Shown here: in pieces, positions 62-22,170 of the stretch
Layout of the letters: each line of letters begins with the position of its first letter
How positions within the stretch are numbered: the stretch's first letter is position 1
Source of the DNA: Candidatus Aenigmatarchaeota archaeon
GTDB taxonomy: Archaea > Aenigmatarchaeota > Aenigmatarchaeia > Aenigmatarchaeales > JACQIB01
Assembly (NCBI GenBank): GCA_046760225.1
Contig: JBHIDR010000002.1
Location: 1 to 52,881, forward strand
Direction: 5' to 3'
DNA: 52,881 bases
The notes under the pieces: model-generated
What the model was told of the DNA's origin: nothing
The model's input: only the letters and a program-made list of their open reading frames with translations
The model's database searches: none
Translations under genes and position numbers: made by a program

Positions 62-805
62 TCATTGCTTCTCTGTGCTCATCAATTGCATCCTGAAGGT
101 TTGTTTGCTGAGCTCCTTGGGCTCGTAAAGGTAGTATATTCTTATTGAAGGATCGAACTCAGGGTTGTGCCTTGCACCCAGCATTACCAAGCCTGTCTCG
201 CCTTCCTTGAGTGTCTCGTCTACTATTTTGGCAATGTACTCGTCCCTTTCCTTTGTTGCCTGGATCCTTTTTTCATGCAGTTCTGACAGGCTTGTTTCTT
301 CTTCTAGTTCAACAAACCTGCCCTCTGCAAGACCCTTTATCATGTCACCTAGTCTTTGCTTACGTGCCTCTTCCTCACGTCCTACTTCATGTGTTTTTTC
401 GCAGAGCTCGTGGTCCTCTGTGGGAACAACCTCAGCGCCCTTCTCAGCAAGGCCGAGCACAATGTCCGCAACCTCGCATCCAACCTCCCTTTCAAGCTCA
501 AGGTTGGCCTTGGTTGTTTTCCAGTCAGTGGTAGCGCTGTCCAGGTAAATCTTGTCTATCTTGAAGATGTCCAAGCCTTTTCGTATGAGCTCCATGTATT
601 CTACTATGAACTCCTCCCTCCTGGCAAGGATCTTGTCCTCCTTAAGGAGGTCCTCAAGCACCTTCTTGTGCTCCTCTATCTCGGCATACACCTCTGAGAA
701 CCTCCTGCCCCTGTACTTGAAGCCCCGGGCTGTCAGTTCCTTGAAAAATATTCTGGACTCGCAGAGCTGGTGCTCCAACGGCACATAAACCAGTATTCTT
801 CCCAT
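62..805 (-). CDS. hypothetical protein, acidic and helical
   Basis: 247-aa ORF with host-like codon usage; C-terminal GLVMLGARH segment; no family recognised with confidence. Confidence 0.7.
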   Translation of the reverse strand: MGRILVYVPLEHQLCESRIFFKELTARGFKYRGRRFSEVYAEIEEHKKVLEDLLKEDKILARREEFIVEYMELIRKGLDIFKIDKIYLDSATTDWKTTKANLELEREVGCEVADIVLGLAEKGAEVVPTEDHELCEKTHEVGREEEARKQRLGDMIKGLAEGRFVELEEETSLSELHEKRIQATKERDEYIAKIVDETLKEGETGLVMLGARHNPEFDPSIRIYYLYEPKELSKQTFRMQLMSTEKQ

Positions 806-861
806 AAAAAATCTTAAGACCGAAAAGGATTTAAGTGCTAATATTTGGTTAGGGTTTTACC

Positions 862-1767
862 TCATCTTATCCAGTTCAATTCCAAGTCTTCTGCCAGCTT
901 CCATGCTTTTTCAAGCTCTTCGTGCTTTGGGAACCTTGCAATCTCAGGATACCTGTGCGCAAGCCATTGGGGACGGTACTGGGGCATTATATTCACTATG
1001 ACCTTCTTCTTGTAGTTCTTTGCAATGTATTCAAGAATCGGTTTTGTGCAGCATTCAAAATGGTTTGGAAGGATAAGATGGCGGATAACCAGCTCGCTGT
1101 CCTTGAAAGCTAGGTCATGGTTCCTTTTCACAAAGTCCCAGTAGCTCTTTACCTTTGACAGCCTTTCACCGCACTTGTTATTTCCATACTTCCAGTCAGA
1201 AAGATAGATGTCTATCATGCCTTTCAGAAGCTGCATTGACCTCTCAGACATGTAGAAATTGCTGTTCCAGACAGTTGGTATGTCTGCTTTTACATGCTGC
1301 AGCGAATCAAGAATAAATGGGAGATTGGGCACAGGGTCACCACCAACAAAATTCACATTGCGGCAGTCCCTGTTCTGGTCAATCAGTCTGGCAATTTCCT
1401 CTGGTGTTGTTGGAATTCCTGTTTCCTTCCACTGGCTGATTTCATAATTTTGGCAAAATTGGCACTGGAATGTGCAGCCCATGAAGAATATGGTAAAGGA
1501 AGGGACAAGGAAAGGCTCTTCGCCCATGTGAGTGAATGCAGATGATATTATTGGCTTGCCACCTACTCTGCAGACTCCTAGTTGTCCTGCTGTTCTGTTA
1601 ACATGGCATTTGCGCTCGCAGAGCTCGCAGTTCTTGAGTATCTCATAAGCTGTTTTTGTGTTTTGTTTAAGGTTCTTTGCAAGCTTGAATCTTGGCTTTG
1701 CCTTGCCAAGAAGTATCTTTCTGTAATTTGGCAGTGCAAGTTTAACACCTGGAGTATCTAGGTCCAT
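862..1767 (-). CDS. radical SAM protein, PflX / PFL-activating-enzyme-like
   Basis: CELCERKC N-terminal cluster, CTFQCQFC radical SAM motif, VNFVGGDP, IRHLILP. Confidence 0.9.
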   Translation of the reverse strand: MDLDTPGVKLALPNYRKILLGKAKPRFKLAKNLKQNTKTAYEILKNCELCERKCHVNRTAGQLGVCRVGGKPIISSAFTHMGEEPFLVPSFTIFFMGCTFQCQFCQNYEISQWKETGIPTTPEEIARLIDQNRDCRNVNFVGGDPVPNLPFILDSLQHVKADIPTVWNSNFYMSERSMQLLKGMIDIYLSDWKYGNNKCGERLSKVKSYWDFVKRNHDLAFKDSELVIRHLILPNHFECCTKPILEYIAKNYKKKVIVNIMPQYRPQWLAHRYPEIARFPKHEELEKAWKLAEDLELNWIR

Positions 1768-1771
1768 ATTA

Positions 1772-2365
1772 TCATGCTCTCAATACCCTTGTTGGTGTTA
1801 CAACGATATCAACTTTTGTGTCATGCGGCTCGACCGGTAATTTGTCAACAAGCTGGCAGTCATGAACTGTTGTGAGCACAGGGACCTTGCCAAATTTCTT
1901 GTGAATCATTGTTATCTCACGGTCTCCCCATCCTCCTCCCTTACCTATTCTGTAGAATTTCTTGTCAACAGCAACACAGCCCGTAACAATAAGGTCTGGT
2001 TTTGGAATCCTGCTGTCAAGTTTTTTGCCATACTTGAAGGCACCAGCAATTGTTGCAGCAGCTCCTGGCTTTGGTGGCTCGAGTGCGAGATAACCTGCTT
2101 TTAGCCTTGGGGATGCCATTATCAGCAGTTTTGCCTGTTCAATTGATATCTGCCTGAGTGGCCGCTGCGCAGAATCAGGGTTAGCAACAATTGTTTTTGC
2201 AGACTTCCATTCAGGCAGTTCAGCAGCACGCTTGGCAGCTTCAGACGCGCCAATAAAGTTTGGGATCCTGTTGTGGACGGGCCTAGGGAATGCTGCAATG
2301 TTGTGCTCCTCCATGTAGTCCCAGATGCGCTTGCGAAGTTCTGCTTTTTGCTCCTTGACAGGCAT
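1772..2365 (-). CDS. 5-formyltetrahydrofolate cyclo-ligase family protein (archaeal / MTHFSD-like)
   Basis: RIPNFIGA, NPDSAQ, GCVAVD..RIGKGGGWGD, HDTKVDIVVTPT motifs. Confidence 0.9.
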   Translation of the reverse strand: MPVKEQKAELRKRIWDYMEEHNIAAFPRPVHNRIPNFIGASEAAKRAAELPEWKSAKTIVANPDSAQRPLRQISIEQAKLLIMASPRLKAGYLALEPPKPGAAATIAGAFKYGKKLDSRIPKPDLIVTGCVAVDKKFYRIGKGGGWGDREITMIHKKFGKVPVLTTVHDCQLVDKLPVEPHDTKVDIVVTPTRVLRA

Positions 2366-2410
2366 ATTAATTAATTACTTTGCTTAAAAGAAATATTAGG
2401 GTGTACTGGA

Positions 2411-2758
2411 ATGAAACTGGGCATGGAGTTCGAGATAAGCTATTCCCACAGCCTTGAAGGGCATTCCAGATGCGGGAAGAAGCATGAGCATACATCAAAG
2501 GTTGTTGTGGAAGCAGAAGGTGAAGTGAAAGGTGGTCCTGAGCTTAAGGACAACATGCTAATGGACTTCTTTGAGATGGGGAAGATATGCAAGGATGTGC
2601 TTGCGGGGCTGGACGGCAAGGACCTGAATGAGATTTTCGATTTCCCAACTGCTGAGAACATTGCAAAATGGATTTTTGACAATCTGAAGGACAAGATTCC
2701 TGTTGCAAAGGTCGTATTCTTTGAGGAAGATGACAAATGGTGCGTTGTGGAAAAATAA
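2411..2758 (+). CDS. queD: 6-pyruvoyl-tetrahydropterin synthase / QueD family
   Basis: HSLEGHSRCGKKHEH metal-binding region, MDF, PTAENIA motif. Confidence 0.8.
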   Translation: MKLGMEFEISYSHSLEGHSRCGKKHEHTSKVVVEAEGEVKGGPELKDNMLMDFFEMGKICKDVLAGLDGKDLNEIFDFPTAENIAKWIFDNLKDKIPVAKVVFFEEDDKWCVVEK

Positions 2759-3166
2759 TCAGAGAACTGATTTGAGATATGGATACATGCAGCGCCCCAT
2801 TTTCTCGAACGTCACAGAATCCATCCTTCTCTTTAGCTCTTCAACAGTAACAGAGTTGTCCTCCTCTATTGCTGTTTTATCATAGATATCATCAAGAGCA
2901 GCAGCAACAAGCTGCTGGTCACCAAAGCCTGTTATTGTGACCTTTGGGCCTTCACAATCCTTTGAAATCGCAAAGAGTGCCTTGCGTTCGCCTTCAAAGA
3001 ACTGTGAGACATAGAAGGGGTAATGTCTAATGAGTAAGTCTCTGAAAAAGGCTGTATAGTTGTTGAAGGTGCTGTATTCCAGAAGCGCTGACTCCAGGTC
3101 CCCATCAAGCAGACCCTCGCTGATCACAGAATAGGTGCCATACAGCTTTGTTCCATATCTTGTCAT
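2759..3166 (-). CDS. hypothetical protein
   Basis: 135-aa ORF abutting the convergent queD stop. Confidence 0.6.
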   Translation of the reverse strand: MTRYGTKLYGTYSVISEGLLDGDLESALLEYSTFNNYTAFFRDLLIRHYPFYVSQFFEGERKALFAISKDCEGPKVTITGFGDQQLVAAALDDIYDKTAIEEDNSVTVEELKRRMDSVTFEKMGRCMYPYLKSVL

Positions 3167-3199
3167 GATATTAAATTTGGAAGAAAAAGGATTTAAGGG

Positions 3200-3457
3200 C
3201 TATTTCCTGTAGACATATTTTATCCAGAACTTCTTGAAATAGGGCATTGTCAGCGTGGAAAGTAAAAAAGCAACAGCAGGGACAATTGCATTCAGCCACG
3301 GATCAGGGATATTAATGTACCAGAGGTAGACTCCTATTGCAAGGTAGGTGAAGACCGCTATCAGCACTTTCCTTGTGAAGCTTGTTTCCCATGCCTTGTC
3401 AGCCTCGACCCTCCTGTTCCTTTTCTTTATCTTCTGTATCTCTTTTTTCATGTCCAC
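3200..3457 (-). CDS. small two-TM membrane protein
   Basis: RNRRVEADKAWETS followed by two hydrophobic helices; last gene of a tight minus-strand operon. Confidence 0.75.
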   Translation of the reverse strand: MDMKKEIQKIKKRNRRVEADKAWETSFTRKVLIAVFTYLAIGVYLWYINIPDPWLNAIVPAVAFLLSTLTMPYFKKFWIKYVYRK

Positions 3458-3461
3458 TGTA

Positions 3462-4004
3462 TCACTCGAATTTCAGGTCATGCGCCCTTTCTACCAGCCC
3501 ATATTTTTCAAAAAACTCCCTGCCACCAATTGCACAGGTATCCTCCATCTTGAATCCTAGCATCTCAACGCCCTGCCTTACTTTGTCCATGGTCTCAGCT
3601 TCTATTTCAAGTAATGGGGGAGCGCCCGGCCATTCATCGACATTGAAAGTTATACCGTCTTTCTTGAAGGTAACCCTGTCCTTTTCCTGGTGCCTTGTCG
3701 CTACCAGGCCGATTGCCTTTAACAGTTTCTCTATTGCATCTGGATCAGAGACCTTTGTCTCAAACTCGTCCATGCATTTGACTCCTTCCTGGTGCTTCAT
3801 TTTCTTGAAAGTAAGAACAGACCTGTCTCCCTCGTCCCTGAGCCTCAGGAAAGATATTTCCTTGCGCAGCCTCTCATCAGGATAGTCGAACATCTTTATC
3901 TTCATTCTCACGTCCCTTATCCTTTCTGCACCAAGGCTTTCCAGCTTCTTGATTATCTCATCCTTGTTTATTTCAAGAATCATTACTTCCAGTTCTTCTG
4001 GCAT
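3462..4004 (-). CDS. CYTH-domain protein (class IV adenylate cyclase-like)
   Basis: N-terminal ExEV, LRLRDEG..LTFK, EFETKV, LLEIEA. Confidence 0.85.
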   Translation of the reverse strand: MPEELEVMILEINKDEIIKKLESLGAERIRDVRMKIKMFDYPDERLRKEISFLRLRDEGDRSVLTFKKMKHQEGVKCMDEFETKVSDPDAIEKLLKAIGLVATRHQEKDRVTFKKDGITFNVDEWPGAPPLLEIEAETMDKVRQGVEMLGFKMEDTCAIGGREFFEKYGLVERAHDLKFE

Positions 4005-16451: not shown

Positions 16452-18332
16452 ATGACAAAGAAAAGAGAAACGTTCAGGACAGCAGAAGAACTAGCACTCG
16501 AGCAAAGAGCAATCTCTGTGGCTGAATTTTTCGAAATCCTTTGATTGAAAAATCAGGGACGAATTAAGAATCGCCACCTGCTCGGCTTTGACAACCCTGC
16601 AAAGGCTTTGCTCACTGTTGTGCGTGAGGCTGTTGACAATTCGTTGGATGCCTGTGAGGATGCAAGGATACTTCCTGAGATAAAGATAACAGTGCAGGAG
16701 CCAAGGGAAATATACTCTATAATGGATGAAGAAGGCGACATCATAGGCGAGTTCATTGTTGAAGGAAAGAAAGTAAAGTTCATATCAGAAGGCTCGACCC
16801 TGCCTCTGGAGAAAAAGGAAGAAAAACGAAAGGGCAATGTCTATGTGTTTGAAAAGGAAGGAAAGAAGATAAAGGTAAAGGAAATCCTGACTGGTGATGA
16901 AAGGCTGATAGAGGTTTCAAGGGGAAAGACAAAGTACAAGGTAACAAAGGCGCCTGTTGACAGGTTCAAGATAATTATTGAGGACAATGGCCCTGGAATA
17001 GTGAAGGAGCAGATACCGAGCATATTCGGAAGGCTGCTCTATGGTTCAAAGTTCTACAAGCTCAGGCAGAGCAGGGGCCAGCAGGGTGTGGGAATATCAG
17101 CTGCTGTGCTTTATTCCCAGCTCACAACAGGCAAGCCGACCATAATCTATTCAAGGACAGGACCGAAAAAGCCTGTCAACATAATGCACCTGAGAATCAA
17201 TGTCACAAAGAACAGGCCTGAAATAATAAAGGAAGAGACAATGAAAGACGGTTTCCGGGAAAGGGGAGTAAGGATAGACATGGAAATAGAGGGCAAGTAC
17301 ATGAAGAGGTACCATTCTGTTTTCGAATATCTCAAACAGACAGCAACTGTCAACCCATTTGCGCACATCATATTCAATTCACCTGACGGCACAAAGCACG
17401 AGTTCCCAAGGACAGTGAAAGAGCTGCCCAAACTACCCAAGGACATCAAGCCACACCCGCTCGGAGTGGAAGTGGGCATGCTTGAAAGGATGTCAAGACT
17501 GACAAGGACAAGGAATGTTGTGGGTTTTCTGTCGGGTGACTTCTGCAGGGTAGGTCCCGGGACAGCAAAGAAAATTGTTAAGCGAGCAGGAATAAAGGGA
17601 TCAACAAGCCCGAAGGCACTGACACATGAACAGATCAACAAGCTATGGAGGGCAATACATGCAACTGACTTCATGAAGCCTCCTCTTGATTGTCTGAGCC
17701 CAATAGGTTCGGGTAAACTGGAAGAAGGAATGAGAAAGGAATACAGTCCTGAGTTCGTGTTTGCGGTCTCCAGACCACCTTCTGTTTACAGGGGCATGCC
17801 CTTCAAGATAGAGGCTGCAATAGCGTATGGTGGCGATGTATCAAAGGAAGGAGCTGTGAAGATTATGCGCTTTGCAAACAGGGTGCCTTTGCTTTATCAG
17901 GCAAGCTCATGCGCAATAACAAAGGCTGTGCACAAGATTGACTGGAAGCACTATGGTCTTGACATGCACGGAACCACTCCTTATGGTCCTGCTGTTATAG
18001 CAGTTCACATGGCATCTGTATGGATACCTTATACTTCCGAGTCAAAGGAAGCAATAGACCCGTATCCAATAATAAAAAAGGAAATAAGGCTTGCCCTGCA
18101 GGAATGTGGAAGAAAACTGCAGAGATTTGTTTCAGGAAGAAGGAGGGCGCAGGAAGTGCAGAAAAGAATAAGCCTTTTCGAGAAGTACATACCTGAAATT
18201 GCCTTTGCCTTGTCAAACCTTACAGGAGAGAAAAAGGAAAAAATAGTAAAAGATTTTGAAAAGATGCTGAAAAGGGGGAAGAAAGAAGATGAAGAGGTCG
18301 AAAAAGAAAAAGGAGAAGAAGCCAAAGGATAA
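16452..18332 (+). CDS. top6B: DNA topoisomerase VI subunit B, intron-containing (exons 16452-16535 and 16566-18332; 616 aa spliced)
   Basis: GAGGTG SD, ATG 16452; spliced SVAEFFE|KNRHLLGFD; EAVDNSLDA, EDNGPG, QSRGQQGVG, RFANRVPLLY. Confidence 0.93.
16536..16565 (+). other. 30-nt BHB pre-mRNA intron in top6B
   Basis: TTCG/CGAA 4-bp helix flanked by AAA and TTA 3-nt bulges; inner GAAA-capped hairpin; outer exon-exon stem including GTGGC/GCCAC; contains in-frame TGA at 16542-16544. Confidence 0.9.
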
Positions 18333-19389
18333 GGTTGTCGGTATAGGAAAGGGAATAATAAGTGATGTACGTAAAGGAATGAATCCGAAACTTGATGTTC
18401 CCATAAGGGCACTGAGCAATGTGATATTTGATGCCAAGAAAAAGCTTCTGGTTATGGGTGACAAGACATCAAGCAGGTTCTTCTTCAATGTCGCACATGT
18501 AAGGAAGTTTGTACAGACCATGGAGGTCGCAGCAACAGCAAAAGAACTTCTTGATGCAAAGAAGCACATCAGCCTGAGGCAGGCATTTTATAAAATGAGG
18601 AGGACAATACCTGGAACCAATATCGACATTGTTGATGAGCAGAAGGAATCAAATGATGCAGTGGAAGACCTTGAGCTGCTCACAGGCCTTTCCAGGGAAC
18701 AGCTTCACATCAATGCCAACAAGAACGGCGCTGCAGCAGGAAAGATTGTAATTAAGGACAAGGGAGACCTGATAAACTGGTCAAAGCTTGGAAGCGGTGG
18801 ATGGGCAATCCCGTCCAATACAGAGGACATAGAGTTCAAAAAAGTAGATGCAAAATTTATCATCTATATGGAAAAAATGGCCATGTGGGAAAGGCTGCAT
18901 GAAGACAGGGTATGGGACAAGATGAACTGTGTGATAATCGCTTCACAGGGACAGGCAACCAGAGGCATCCGCAGGCTGCTGCAGAGGATGAACAAGGAGC
19001 TAAAGCTTCCTGTTTATGTGTTAGTCGACAATGATAGTTGGGGGGTATATATTTATTCTGTTTTGAAATTCGGTTCAATCTCTCTTGCATATGCTTCTGA
19101 TAAACTAGCAATACCAAGTGCAAAGTTAATTGGTCTTACTTGTGATGATATTATAAAATACAATCTTAAAAAACATATAATTAAGTTCAAAGATGTCGAT
19201 AAAAAAAGATTGGAACAAATAGGAAAATATGACTGGTTTAAAGACAATAAAGCATGGCAAAGACAGTTTAAGATGATGAAACAACAAGGCGGAAAGGTAG
19301 AATTGGATGCCCTTGTTGCAAAGGGAGTTAGTTTTATATCAGATGTTTACCTTCCAGAAAAAATAAAGAAGAGAGATTTTTTGGATTAG
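18289..19389 (+). CDS. top6A: DNA topoisomerase VI subunit A
   Basis: SLRQAFY catalytic Tyr, AVEDLE, MEK, QGQATR, DNDSWG TOPRIM, VELDAL. Confidence 0.95.
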   Translation: MKRSKKKKEKKPKDKVVGIGKGIISDVRKGMNPKLDVPIRALSNVIFDAKKKLLVMGDKTSSRFFFNVAHVRKFVQTMEVAATAKELLDAKKHISLRQAFYKMRRTIPGTNIDIVDEQKESNDAVEDLELLTGLSREQLHINANKNGAAAGKIVIKDKGDLINWSKLGSGGWAIPSNTEDIEFKKVDAKFIIYMEKMAMWERLHEDRVWDKMNCVIIASQGQATRGIRRLLQRMNKELKLPVYVLVDNDSWGVYIYSVLKFGSISLAYASDKLAIPSAKLIGLTCDDIIKYNLKKHIIKFKDVDKKRLEQIGKYDWFKDNKAWQRQFKMMKQQGGKVELDALVAKGVSFISDVYLPEKIKKRDFLD

Positions 19390-19494
19390 AATTTTCTGAT
19401 TTCGCTTGTTCCACCTCGCAAATGAATTCGGAACCTGAACCCCAATCCTAGCAGAGGGTTCAGAACCCTCACAAATCCAAGCGAGGTGATAAAT

Positions 19495-20665
19495 GTGCGA
19501 AATCAATTAGAAAATTTAAATAAAAATAACTCAAATATTTATTGTATGAAAATAATAACTAAGAGCTTTATTCCAACATCTATTGATAAAAGAGTGTTCT
19601 TTTTTGAGGAGCTAAAGGATAAAATCAAAGTTTTTTTCTAAAAGAACTGGAAGCGGAAGTAACCCCAAACCATTTATACTTCCTAAAGAAATTGAAATTG
19701 ATGAGGTTTTCACTGAAGCTGTTGGTTTATATGTTGGTGATGGAAAATTAACAAAAAATGATTTAACACATGCAGGATTTGTAAATAAAGACAAGGATAT
19801 TATAAAGTTCATGTTTCAATTTTTTAGAAATGTAATGAATGTACCTATAGAAAGAATGTGTATAACAATAGGATATAAAAATGAAGACGAAGAGAAAATA
19901 AGAGAGAAATGGTCAAAAATACTTGATATTAATGAAGCAAAATTCAGATTTCAAAAATCAAATAGACATAAATTTGAAACGGTAGATGTTCAGATTAACA
20001 GTTTCGTTTTTAGAGTAATTTTTCAGAACATCCTTGAACATTCCCTACAAGTAATAAAAAGAAATAAAAAGTTAAGAAGAGGGTTTCTAAGGGGTTACTT
20101 TGCTGCTGAGGGTACAATTGGTTTTAAAGAAAAAGATAATTGCATTGAATATATAGGCTTTTCTTATAATCCTTTGGGTGAAGGTTGGTTAAGAAATTTT
20201 TGCATAGATTGTCTTAGAATCGAAGGAATAAAAGCAAAATACAAAGAAAGAGATGGAAACAGGGCAGAAATTATAATTAATAAATGGAAAAATTATTCGA
20301 AATTATGGGAAATTAGAATTTTTGACAGATGTGAAAGAAAAAAACAGAAGTTCACAAAAATACTTAACTCAAGAGAATTTTATTGTAAACTTAATGATGA
20401 ATTTAGACTTGAGTTTTTTGATTCAATAAACCTGTATCAAAGGGATATTGCAAAAATAATAAATTCATGGCAAGGAAATGTATGCAAAACTATACAAGGA
20501 AAACATTTAATGACAATAAACCAAATAAAAAGGCTTATTCCGTATTCAAAATTCTCAAAGGAGGATATAAATAAAAATATAGAAGGTGTAAGAATAGGTA
20601 ATATGAGGGGGTTTGTCTCTGACAAGTATCTTCCTGAGAAAAATAAGGAAGAAGGACTGGATTGA
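19495..20665 (+). mobile_element. free-standing double-motif LAGLIDADG homing endonuclease, frameshifted at T7 run 19631-19637
   Basis: AT-rich; EAVGLYVGDG and GFLRGYFAAEG motifs; GAGGTG SD with GTG 19495; first frame stops 19639-19641, +1 frame continues to 20665. Confidence 0.8.
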
Positions 20666-20669
20666 TTAA
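20612..20669 (+). repeat. displaced remnant copy of the top6A 3' end
   Basis: encodes FVSDKYLPEK(+1 nt)IRKKDWID*, versus FISDVYLPEKIKKRDFLD* at 19333-19389. Confidence 0.85.
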
Positions 20670-21046
20670 TGTATAACGCGCTTGATTGCTTCTTTAATCA
20701 TTTCTTTAGGAGGATAGGGATATTGCTTTCCTTTGAAGAAATAGGTTCGGCATCCGCACATGCATTCCTGTTTTACAAATTCAGTTGTCCCCTTTGTTTG
20801 TTCAGCAAGCTCTTCGCATGACATACATCTTCCTTTGCTAACTTCTTCCTGGATATCTTTTCCATTGATTGTAACAGAAGGCGAGCCTACAAAATTGTAC
20901 TTTTTTGCCCTTTCATCAGAATCAATCAATGTTTCCTCTACTTCAGCCTTAACTCCAAGTTCCTTCAAACTTTCTTTAACCAGCCCTTTGGTCTTGACAC
21001 AATGAGGGCAATTGAGTATATACAGTATCTGTATTTTCATAACCAT
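20666..21046 (-). CDS. thioredoxin-fold protein (DUF2703-like)
   Basis: CPHC, FVGSPSVTINGKDI, GCRTY. Confidence 0.8.
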   Translation of the reverse strand: MVMKIQILYILNCPHCVKTKGLVKESLKELGVKAEVEETLIDSDERAKKYNFVGSPSVTINGKDIQEEVSKGRCMSCEELAEQTKGTTEFVKQECMCGCRTYFFKGKQYPYPPKEMIKEAIKRVIH

Positions 21047-21138
21047 AATTCAGCGCAAGCACTTAAATAACTAAGCCAGGCAAAACAATTTAAACGCTTA
21101 GATTTAATCAGATTAGTATGGGGCTGGCCGTATAGGCT

Positions 21139-21358
21139 GGGGCAGTAATCCTTTTGGAGGACTGCATGCTCAGCCCGGGAGAGCGCTACATCCGATTGGA
21201 GGCGAACCTGAAGACTCGGATGAGCGGCAAGGTAGACACCGGCACTTTTGTGTTGATGGCTCATTTGTCGCGTGCGTGCATCAGGTACCTCTGGTGTGCC
21301 GCGAATTCAAATGGGAGTTAGGTCTCCTATCTTCCTGAAGCTCACGCCTGCCCCACCA
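21139..21358 (+). tRNA. tRNA-Phe(GAA) with six introns: 21148-21167 (9/10), 21190-21206 (30/31), 21214-21229 (37/38), 21236-21264 (43/44), 21275-21305 (53/54), 21312-21341 (59/60)
   Basis: removing the six hairpin introns gives a fully paired 77-nt cloverleaf GGGGCAG TA GCTC AGCCCGGGA GAGC G CTACC CTGAAGA GGTAG TTGTC GCGTG TTCAAAT CACGC CTGCCCC A CCA; TTTAAA box about 45 nt upstream. Confidence 0.92.
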
Positions 21359-21411
21359 AATTTCTTCGTCGAACAGATGAAGTCTTTGTACATTGATAGG
21401 AGGTGGAGCAA

Positions 21412-21570
21412 ATGCACATAAACTATACAAACAAGCCAGAAGGCTGGAAAATGAAAGAATGGGGAAAGATATACGTAGACAAACCAGGACATTACGAATT
21501 TGATGCACCGTCAAACAGATGGATATATAAGGGTGATAAAAATGAAGGAGAAGATAAGCGTATTCTTTAA
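21412..21570 (+). CDS. small hypothetical protein (52 aa)
   Basis: strong GGAGGTG SD; MHINYTNKPEGWKMKEWGKIYVDKPGHYEFD...; below the ORF-track cut-off. Confidence 0.6.
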   Translation: MHINYTNKPEGWKMKEWGKIYVDKPGHYEFDAPSNRWIYKGDKNEGEDKRIL

Positions 21571-21594
21571 ATCTTTGGAGGACAATCATATTGC

Positions 21595-22170
21595 ATGAAA
21601 ATAGGCATCATAGGGACATTCAATACAGGAAAGACGTCTCTTTGCCATTCCCTTGTGGGTGCACTGAAGGAGAAGGGGGTGAGGGCCGAGTTTGTTCCAG
21701 AATCAGTAAGGAACTGCCCAATGCCTGCTGGCACAGAGGGCAACAGCACACTGGATTCCCAGATGTGGATAATAGCAAAGCAGGTAGCAAATGAGATGGA
21801 GGCTGAGCACAACAATGATGTCATTGTATGCGACAGTAATATAGTGAACATCTATGCATACTTTCTTTCAATTCTCAAGAACACACCTAACCCCAAAGAG
21901 GAGTTTGTCAGCATTGCAAAATCAGTGCTTGAAGAGTGGCACAAGACATATGACTTCCTCTTCAAGCTCACAATACCAAAGGAGAAGCAGATGATGATAA
22001 CAAATGACGGCTTCAGGTCAGTGAACCTGAAATGGCAGAAGGAGATTGATGTATTAATTGACCAGATCATCAGTTCTCTGGGTATAAAGGTATATGAAAT
22101 ACCGCTTGATTCTAATCTGGAGAGGGTAAGAAAAATAATGAGAATAATAGAGGAGAATAAGCCTTTTTAA
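21595..22170 (+). CDS. AAA_28 / NadR-like P-loop NTPase
   Basis: IGIIGTFNTGKTS, VPESVR, YDFLF, DGFRS. Confidence 0.8.
   Translation: MKIGIIGTFNTGKTSLCHSLVGALKEKGVRAEFVPESVRNCPMPAGTEGNSTLDSQMWIIAKQVANEMEAEHNNDVIVCDSNIVNIYAYFLSILKNTPNPKEEFVSIAKSVLEEWHKTYDFLFKLTIPKEKQMMITNDGFRSVNLKWQKEIDVLIDQIISSLGIKVYEIPLDSNLERVRKIMRIIEENKPF

Follow-up and report, generated by a model that had tools for sequence, protein, structure and literature searches.

We examined the region around top6A, the topoisomerase VI A gene, in a window of 52,881 nucleotides (the whole stretch of DNA that was analysed, contig JBHIDR010000002.1) from a Candidatus Aenigmatarchaeota archaeon. The genome of this small-genome, DPANN-type archaeon is a metagenome-assembled draft of 0.85 Mb over 83 contigs. 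A preliminary description of the window had proposed that a homing endonuclease gene (HEG) replaced and duplicated the 3' end of top6A, without the help of an intron or intein. The locus contains the following features, where GC3 stands for the GC content at third codon positions, ORF for open reading frame and HTH for helix-turn-helix.

18289..19389, plus strand: top6A, full; Pfam TP6A_N, Topo_VI_alpha and Toprim; own stop TAG at 19387-19389
18289..19044, plus strand: 5' two-thirds of top6A, apparently host derived; GC3 about 0.52; TP6A_N and Topo_VI_alpha
19045..19389, plus strand: 3' third of top6A, AT-rich and apparently foreign; GC3 0.23; putative co-converted tract plus replacement tail; includes the Toprim DxD motif
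19333-19389, plus strand: putative replacement tail of top6A, FISDVYLPEKIKKRDFLD and stop
19390..19545, plus strand: spacer of 156 nt from the top6A stop to the endonuclease start; hairpin; TATA-like AT-rich stretch ahead of the ATG
19546..19641, plus strand: N-terminal piece of the endonuclease, MKIITKSFIPTS...DKIKV; stop right after a run of seven T (T7); aligns with the N terminus of the intact homologue from genome G023
19616..20611, plus strand: main frame of the endonuclease, double-LAGLIDADG; motifs 1 and 2 and an Xre-like HTH; 56% identical to the intact G023 protein
19724-19744, plus strand: LAGLIDADG motif 1, GLYVGDG
20093-20113, plus strand: LAGLIDADG motif 2, GYFAAEG
about 20426-20550, plus strand: Xre-like HTH (match to a PDB profile, E 4.5e-4)
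20612..20669, plus strand: apparent displaced tail (remnant) of top6A, FVSDKYLPEK (20612-20641), then IRKKDWID and stop in the next frame

The composition of top6A was not uniform along the gene. In sliding windows of 30 codons, GC3 was 0.4-0.7 up to about 19000 and 0.1-0.37 thereafter. The maximum-likelihood change point, at which GC3 went from 0.516 to 0.228, lay on a plateau at 19006-19045 (log-likelihood ratio [LLR] 13.9; Fisher p 2e-7), in agreement with the turn to AT-rich codons first placed at about 19020. When two change points were fitted over 16545-22170, an AT-rich island was delimited at 19045-20606, with a GC content of 0.289 vs 0.45 to its left and 0.42 to its right. A GC3 as low as that of the top6A 3' part was found in 0.5% of 2866 windows of 122 codons, taken from 301 long open frames of the whole genome, and the change-point LLR of the window was the highest among 26 top6A loci of relatives. 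The sharp GC3 step coincided with a drop in amino acid identity to Top6A of G001, a genome of the same genus, from about 0.9 to about 0.7. Pfam matched the complete Toprim domain (1-170/170) in Top6A.

The preliminary description had also reported an AT-rich ORF with two LAGLIDADG motifs directly after top6A, running into a second Top6A C terminus. Both motifs were found inside the island, and the ORF does run straight into the second tail, but it does not directly follow top6A, from which it is separated by the 156-nt spacer, and it is split by a frameshift. The spacer is predicted to form an extended hairpin at about 19402-19500 (RNA fold, -33.8 kcal/mol; z, -3.39), and the GC content of the windows covering it was 0.34-0.41, above that of the endonuclease body. 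A second copy of the hairpin was found neither in the genome nor at other HEG loci, and no Rfam family matched it. The AT-rich stretch before the endonuclease ATG may be TATA-like, judging from its letters.

The split of the ORF is a +1 frameshift in the T7 run at 19631-19637. The main frame lies one base to the right and is open from 19616, so that the two frames overlap; upstream of motif 1 it contains no ATG, GTG or TTG. An alignment with the intact G023 homologue (376 amino acids) showed that the break arises where the T run differs in length by one base. The endonuclease in the window is also without the native last 13-20 residues of its family and reads into FVSDKYLPEK instead. Because this native tail has been lost, we judge that the T7 frameshift is more likely an inactivating mutation than a slippage site. 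Being both frameshifted and without its native C-terminal tail, the window copy of the element is probably inactive, decaying and past its active phase.

To identify the enzyme, the window copy was compared with its homologues. Against Pfam LAGLIDADG_3 (PF14528) it scored 19.3 bits, below the cut-off of 22.5, vs 26.9 bits for the intact G023 homologue, above this cut-off. All of nine aligned family members were matched by LAGLIDADG_3 at E<=0.1 (best, 1.1e-6). Both acidic motif residues were conserved in 9/9, with an invariant G-D-G column and either E or D in the second motif. The C-terminal part of the HEG family profile matched an HTH of the Xre/lambda-repressor type (E 4.5e-4), and the Pfam matches in the nine members were to LAGLIDADG_3 and HTH families, with no Hint/intein-like domain or zinc finger. 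As a stand-in for the broken ORF of the window, the 56%-identical G023 protein was modeled with AlphaFold2 (predicted local distance difference test score 88.1). The top Foldseek matches of this model were I-DmoI chains (E 4e-6; probability, 1.00; target template modeling score, 0.58-0.69), followed by intein-associated endonucleases and WhiA; intein structures matched it solely via the endonuclease domain. We read the family as a free-standing I-DmoI-like double-LAGLIDADG endonuclease with a C-terminal HTH, for which cleavage is predicted. Its core resembles that of the monomeric archaeal enzyme I-DmoI (PDB 2vs7, 1b24) in having two motifs per chain with an acidic residue in each. I-DmoI, however, is encoded in an rRNA intron and has about 190 amino acids, whereas the members of the family are free-standing, with about 376 amino acids, an extra N-terminal beta region and the C-terminal HTH; the sequence identity between the two is about 15%.

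Downstream of the HEG, the second Top6A C terminus was recognized in both of its pieces, FVSDKYLPEK and IRKKDWID, by a profile of Top6A C termini (16.1 and 11.9 bits). An extra A in a run of five A at 20639-20643 shifts the frame of the remnant, whose Top6A C terminus ends at 20669; the endonuclease frame reads through it up to a TGA at 20663-20665. The insertion point can be placed at 19332/19333 in the new copy and at 20611/20612 at the remnant. Between the new tail and the remnant, 19 of 57 nt are different. The host-like character attributed to the remnant was found to be weak: 41/57 nt match G001 vs 38/57 matching the new copy, and its GC content is 0.34 vs 0.26 for the new copy, but 57 nt are too short to discriminate. 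As a side observation, the native HEG tails of L038 (genome G098; ...GNMRSFIYDK...) and L036 (G023; ...KIFIYDRE...) resemble the Top6A tail F-V/I-S-D-K-Y, and this likeness falls where the HEG of the window joins the remnant. It could be due to chance, or it could reflect microhomology used in joining.

Next, the distribution of the HEG was examined in relatives, which carry the submitters' labels "Nanoarchaeota" and "Aenigmatarchaeota". In a class-wide search of 371 genomes, 30 had a HEG relative of any kind at E<=1e-10, and close relatives were present at 13 loci, including the window. Among the 12 other loci, the HEG abuts the top6A stop at 9, lies between top6B and top6A at 1 and has no top6A within 1.5 kb at 2. 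All 9 HEGs abutting the top6A stop are convergent with top6A. Distant LAGLIDADG relatives had neither top6A nor top6B nearby (0/17 loci). A metagenome scan with the HEG alignment gave one more convergent HEG at top6A (L069); another locus from the same scan (L068) is identical to G023 and was not counted as independent. The metagenome scan with the HEG of the window alone gave no match, and a scan of genome contigs with the HEG returned G023 itself only.

We searched these loci for remnants beyond the HEG, on the top6A strand and in six frames, using a profile of the last 30 residues of Top6A. A second Top6A C-terminal match was found at 7 of 11 loci (the window, G023, G092, G193, G180, G192 and L069), vs none of 16 HEG-free control loci. 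The remnants start 10-24 codons ahead of the stop. Alleles free of the element, which the preliminary description had suggested for comparison, were found for two of the HEG-bearing genomes. In G001, from the genus of the window, top6A is directly followed by another gene, with no HEG match. In G040, from the genus of G023, the letters following the top6A stop match those that follow the remnant in G023. Degenerate HEG copies were present in G012, G192 and G090 as well as in the window. At four other HEG-bearing loci, the best GC3 change point lies 126-152 codons before the stop (114 in the window) with an AT-richer 3' side, and at none of the 16 HEG-free loci; this hints at a crossover zone shared among HEG-bearing loci, with low LLRs of 3.0-7.3. 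Only the window copy is co-oriented with top6A, lacks the native tail and reads through into the remnant. Inversion was considered as a cause of the odd orientation and set aside, as no convincing inverted repeats flank the HEG of the window.

The history of top6A was then examined separately for its two parts. In the comparison of Top6A with G001, residues 20-244 were 85.3% identical and residues 245-366 were 71.3% identical (33 mismatches in 225 positions vs 35 in 122; Fisher p 0.0027), whereas both parts are about equally conserved on average (65.2% and 66.0% over 1431 pairs). The C-part deficit of this pair was the second largest of 77 comparably close pairs, and the top three all involve HEG-bearing alleles. 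The trees comprised 51 rows, after removal of two rows that exactly duplicated others and of one containing an internal stop. The N part placed the window as sister to G001 (support, 93/71), with a terminal branch of 0.097. In the C-part tree, it fell within a clade (98/90; starred in our tree) with P0002, G008, G040 and G023, with a terminal branch of 0.31. The G023 genome of this clade carries the closest HEG, 56% identical. The 5' and 3' parts take different positions, and the conflict between them is suggestive but not proven. Several pairs of database Top6A proteins (among P0003, P0007, P0009, P0011 and P0012) showed the opposite mosaic, with the 3' part much more alike than the 5' part (e.g., 97.5% vs 87.1%), which would be expected if 3' parts are shared by conversion.

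An assembly artefact as the source of the duplicate was ruled out by separately assembled contigs from four runs of one study, labelled hydrothermal vent metagenome. Over the boundaries and both homopolymer runs, these contigs agreed with the window letter for letter (0 differences). Those from run X3 span 18200-20072 and 20498-21200, and fragments from run X4 cover the T run and the right junction, in both cases with no difference from the window. It is true that the draft is an 83-contig metagenome assembly, that all four runs come from one study and that two of them may be the source of the window DNA. Given the identity of the separate contigs and the presence of the same anatomy in other genomes, it is nevertheless hardly credible that an assembly chimera or a homopolymer sequencing error made the duplication or the frameshifts.

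Taken together, the locus is best explained by a gene-end-replacing homing element on an archaeal chromosome, similar to the WHO elements of yeasts and the mORFs of fungal mitochondria, a reading to which we assign a probability of roughly 0.8. It draws on the anatomy of the locus, the composition boundaries, the recurrence at the site, the empty alleles, the fold and the reproducible assemblies; from these we infer that the enzyme cleaves, where its target lies, that the new end is resistant, that gene conversion repairs the break and that donor DNA had a way into the cell. The functional unit would be the free-standing endonuclease gene together with the adjoining 3' stretch of top6A. The enzyme would cut an element-free top6A about 18-24 codons ahead of its stop, and the break would be repaired from an element-bearing allele, with the upstream part of top6A as the left homology arm and the short tail fragment beyond the HEG as the right arm. 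The left crossover would fall in the highly conserved region of the Toprim motif, here at 19006-19045. The recipient would end up with a chimeric, intact top6A (its own 5' part and a donor 3' part that is presumably uncuttable), the HEG, and its own old tail as a dead remnant. In the window, the converted tract would measure about 290-330 nt upstream of the insertion point, close to the 300 nt first estimated, or about 345-385 nt when the replaced tail is counted.

Homing of this kind, without an intron or intein and with a 3' end borne by the element, agrees with a complete top6A that has its own stop, with the presence of the HEG subfamily at 10 other top6A 3' ends, and with the displaced tails at 7/11 vs 0/16 loci. 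An intein was rejected, given the top6A stop TAG at 19387-19389, the 156-nt spacer and the absence of any Pfam intein domain. A HEG-bearing intron was rejected as well: no Rfam family matched at E<=1 in 18900-21700 (bulge-helix-bulge motifs were not searched specifically), Toprim is complete without splicing, and the downstream tail is frameshifted.

Several observations weigh against a homing element of this kind. The frameshifted and tail-less HEG of the window would give no full enzyme by standard decoding. It is the sole co-oriented copy among the 11 top6A 3'-end loci, and its arrangement is therefore not obtainable by simple homing from any sampled one. No remnant was found at 4 of the 11 loci, although one of them (L039) is on a contig that breaks off at the HEG, so that nothing beyond it can be read. 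The remnant in the window is too short to prove host origin. In approximately unbiased (AU) tests, congruence was not rejected when the window and G001 were kept together in the C-part (p 0.084), nor when the C-part clade, a group named after the tree was seen, was kept together in the N-part (p 0.070). Finally, no close donor was found: among 5.8 billion proteins, the best matches to the C-terminal 122 amino acids were 75-76% identical, and the closest HEG was 56% identical.

These points leave some room for other explanations. The 3' part of top6A and the HEG could have been acquired passively, by ordinary homologous recombination with a foreign fragment that carried both, in which case the remnant would be debris of an imprecise crossover and the nuclease would be idle. 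The frameshifted HEG, the nonsignificant AU tests and the missing donor all fit such an origin. However, the same HEG subfamily sits at the same few top6A codons in 10 other loci of several families, and because of this recurrence a site-specific process is needed; the remnants, moreover, are specific to HEG-bearing loci (7/11 vs 0/16). We therefore regard passive acquisition as unlikely. It appears more improbable still that the 3' third is native, the HEG having been inserted downstream of, or into, the top6A tail and the AT-rich third having drifted locally with no co-conversion. The highest identity found for the 3' part among all sampled sequences (76%) and the AU test with p 0.084 are compatible with local drift, but the GC3 step is sharp and coincides with the fall in identity to the congener G001 (about 0.9 to about 0.7). 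Furthermore, GC3 of the G001 top6A does not fall toward its 3' end, where the sole change point is a rise; the C-part terminal branch of the window is three times that of the N-part, in a starred clade apart from G001; and an AT-richer 3' side from 126-152 codons before the stop was seen at four other HEG-bearing loci and at none of the 16 HEG-free loci.

The LAGLIDADG and HTH protein might instead not be a mobile nuclease at all but a DNA-binding regulator of the WhiA kind, domesticated and linked to top6A. A LAGLIDADG core with a C-terminal HTH does resemble the architecture of WhiA, which was among the fold matches (3hyi, E 1.4e-4), and Pfam LAGLIDADG_WhiA matched one of the nine family members. 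On the other hand, the catalytic acidic residues are kept in 9/9 members, and I-DmoI ranks above WhiA in the fold search. The presence of the gene is patchy (30/371 genomes at E<=1e-10, with the close subfamily in a much smaller number), with degenerate copies in G012, G192, G090 and the window, and duplicated gene tails accompany the HEG. A regulator is thus a very improbable account of the protein.

A minor contig from run X4 (depth, 2.8 of 7.7) carries nine synonymous differences from the window, confined to 18999-19095, eight of them changes from AT to GC. On either side of this interval, which lies exactly at the left boundary of the putative foreign tract, the contig does not differ from the window, and it may come from a strain with a different conversion end point. 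A bolder possibility, which we hold to be doubtful, is that the element is still active in the vent population. The minor allele would then represent a second, shorter conversion tract, arising from repeated homing or from recombination between element-bearing and native alleles. The T7 frameshift would be bypassed by transcriptional or ribosomal slippage, keeping expression of the nuclease low, and the displaced tail would be renewed from the recipient at every homing because it serves as the right-hand homology arm. If so, the element would be a natural cleave-and-rescue gene drive on the one topoisomerase VI A gene that these DPANN-type archaea were found to have, and DNA exchange between cells would be frequent.

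The closest known parallel to the proposed gene-end replacement is provided by the WHO elements that yeasts of the genera Torulaspora and Lachancea carry at FBA1 (Coughlan et al. 2020, eLife, PMC7282813). In that paper, the WHO endonuclease was shown to cut sensitive FBA1 alleles. In the model given there, repair swaps in a resistant, element-linked 3' end, and the displaced fragment, now acting as the homology arm on the downstream side, can gain frameshifts freely; WHO genes are found in either orientation. Both kinds of element consist of a free-standing LAGLIDADG-type gene just downstream of an essential gene whose 3' end it replaces. In both, the old 3' end is displaced beyond the HEG and may be frameshifted, the host gene is chimeric, and the HEG decays to a pseudogene. 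They differ in the protein, with an intein-like region and a zinc finger in WHO vs an I-DmoI-like core and an Xre-type HTH in the top6A element, and in the host and target (sexual yeast and FBA1 vs an archaeal chromosome and top6A). The displaced fragment is about 400 bp in WHO vs about 18-24 codons here, and no tandem clusters were seen for the top6A element, unlike WHO. Cleavage is experimental for WHO, whereas the top6A element is known here from its sequence. The element would work like a WHO element but is outside the WHO protein family.

Mobile endonuclease ORFs (mORFs) with a carboxy-terminal duplication occur at atp6 of Allomyces macrogynus and at atp6, atp9, cox2 and nad3 of Glomus sp. 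(PMC3630166). They share with the top6A element a LAGLIDADG ORF near the 3' end of a gene, with a foreign C terminus before it and the native one after it, but they reside in organelle genomes and have other target genes. In several of the fungal cases, mORF and host gene form one continuous reading frame; top6A, by contrast, ends at a stop of its own, followed by the 156-nt spacer. The seg and mob genes of phage T4, e.g., mobE, exemplify intronless homing by free-standing endonucleases (PMC2790892). Here, too, the HEG lies beside its target gene, spreads by break repair and co-converts flanking markers. The T4 enzymes are, however, of the GIY-YIG or HNH type and lie between genes, and they are not known to duplicate a gene end.

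No archaeal case of a gene-end-replacing homing element was found in the literature; one article that names both homing endonuclease and topoisomerase VI (PMC11529989) is unrelated. The class of mechanism is already known. What we did not find in the literature is an archaeal chromosomal family with this enzyme architecture and target. If our reading is correct, the same gene-end strategy operates on archaeal chromosomes with an unrelated, I-DmoI-like enzyme, and this HEG family has followed the top6A 3' end through several families of small-genome archaea. top6A would be chimeric in these lineages, which matters for phylogenies that use it, and chromosomal DNA exchange would be required between cells thought to be obligate symbionts. 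The family would also be a source of putative LAGLIDADG and HTH nucleases whose target region, about 20-40 bp, can be predicted. The window taken alone adds a further copy, which is probably decaying and is oriented unusually.

Further loci of the family and of the topoisomerase VI genes deserve mention. At L043 (G117:C114, locus 112-3972), a 36%-identical HEG lies between top6B and top6A, convergent with top6B and abutting its 3' end, and it may represent a target switch from top6A to top6B. Two members more distant in sequence (35-37% identity), at L044 (G108:C4) and L045 (G133:C2), are not beside top6A; their neighbourhood includes a small kinase-like gene, judged by eye to resemble the gene downstream of top6A in G001, and the G133 copy also adjoins an integrase-like ORF. 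In G012, the truncated 5' end of top6B (L012:3-1508) seems to bear the C-terminal end of an intein, with a match to Pfam Intein_splicing at positions 107-155/155 (E 2.6e-5), below the cut-off, and the same intein-end motif was recognized, by eye only, at the truncated 5' end of top6B in G023 (L008:3-1559). Selfish elements of several kinds appear to be drawn to the topoisomerase VI genes in these lineages.

Two genes flank the top6A element in the window.

16545..18332, plus strand: top6B ORF; Pfam Topo-VIb_trans and HATPase_c; upstream partner, overlapping the start of top6A; host-like composition
20666..21046, minus strand: thioredoxin-like/DUF2703 gene; Pfam DUF2703 and Thioredoxin_3; its stop overlaps the end of the remnant; outside the element

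No tRNA was found in 19000-22000 by a tRNA scan. Beyond the thioredoxin-like gene, the stretch 21120-21350 is GC-rich (0.51-0.55) and without a long ORF, and it gave no ARAGORN or Rfam match save a chance-level microRNA match (E 4.7). In three runs, contigs from other organisms matched its core at 21136-21184, and downstream of top6A in G001 there is a 22-nt piece with 95% identity to part of the stretch. The stretch is probably a conserved noncoding RNA gene and may resemble archaeal signal recognition particle RNA.

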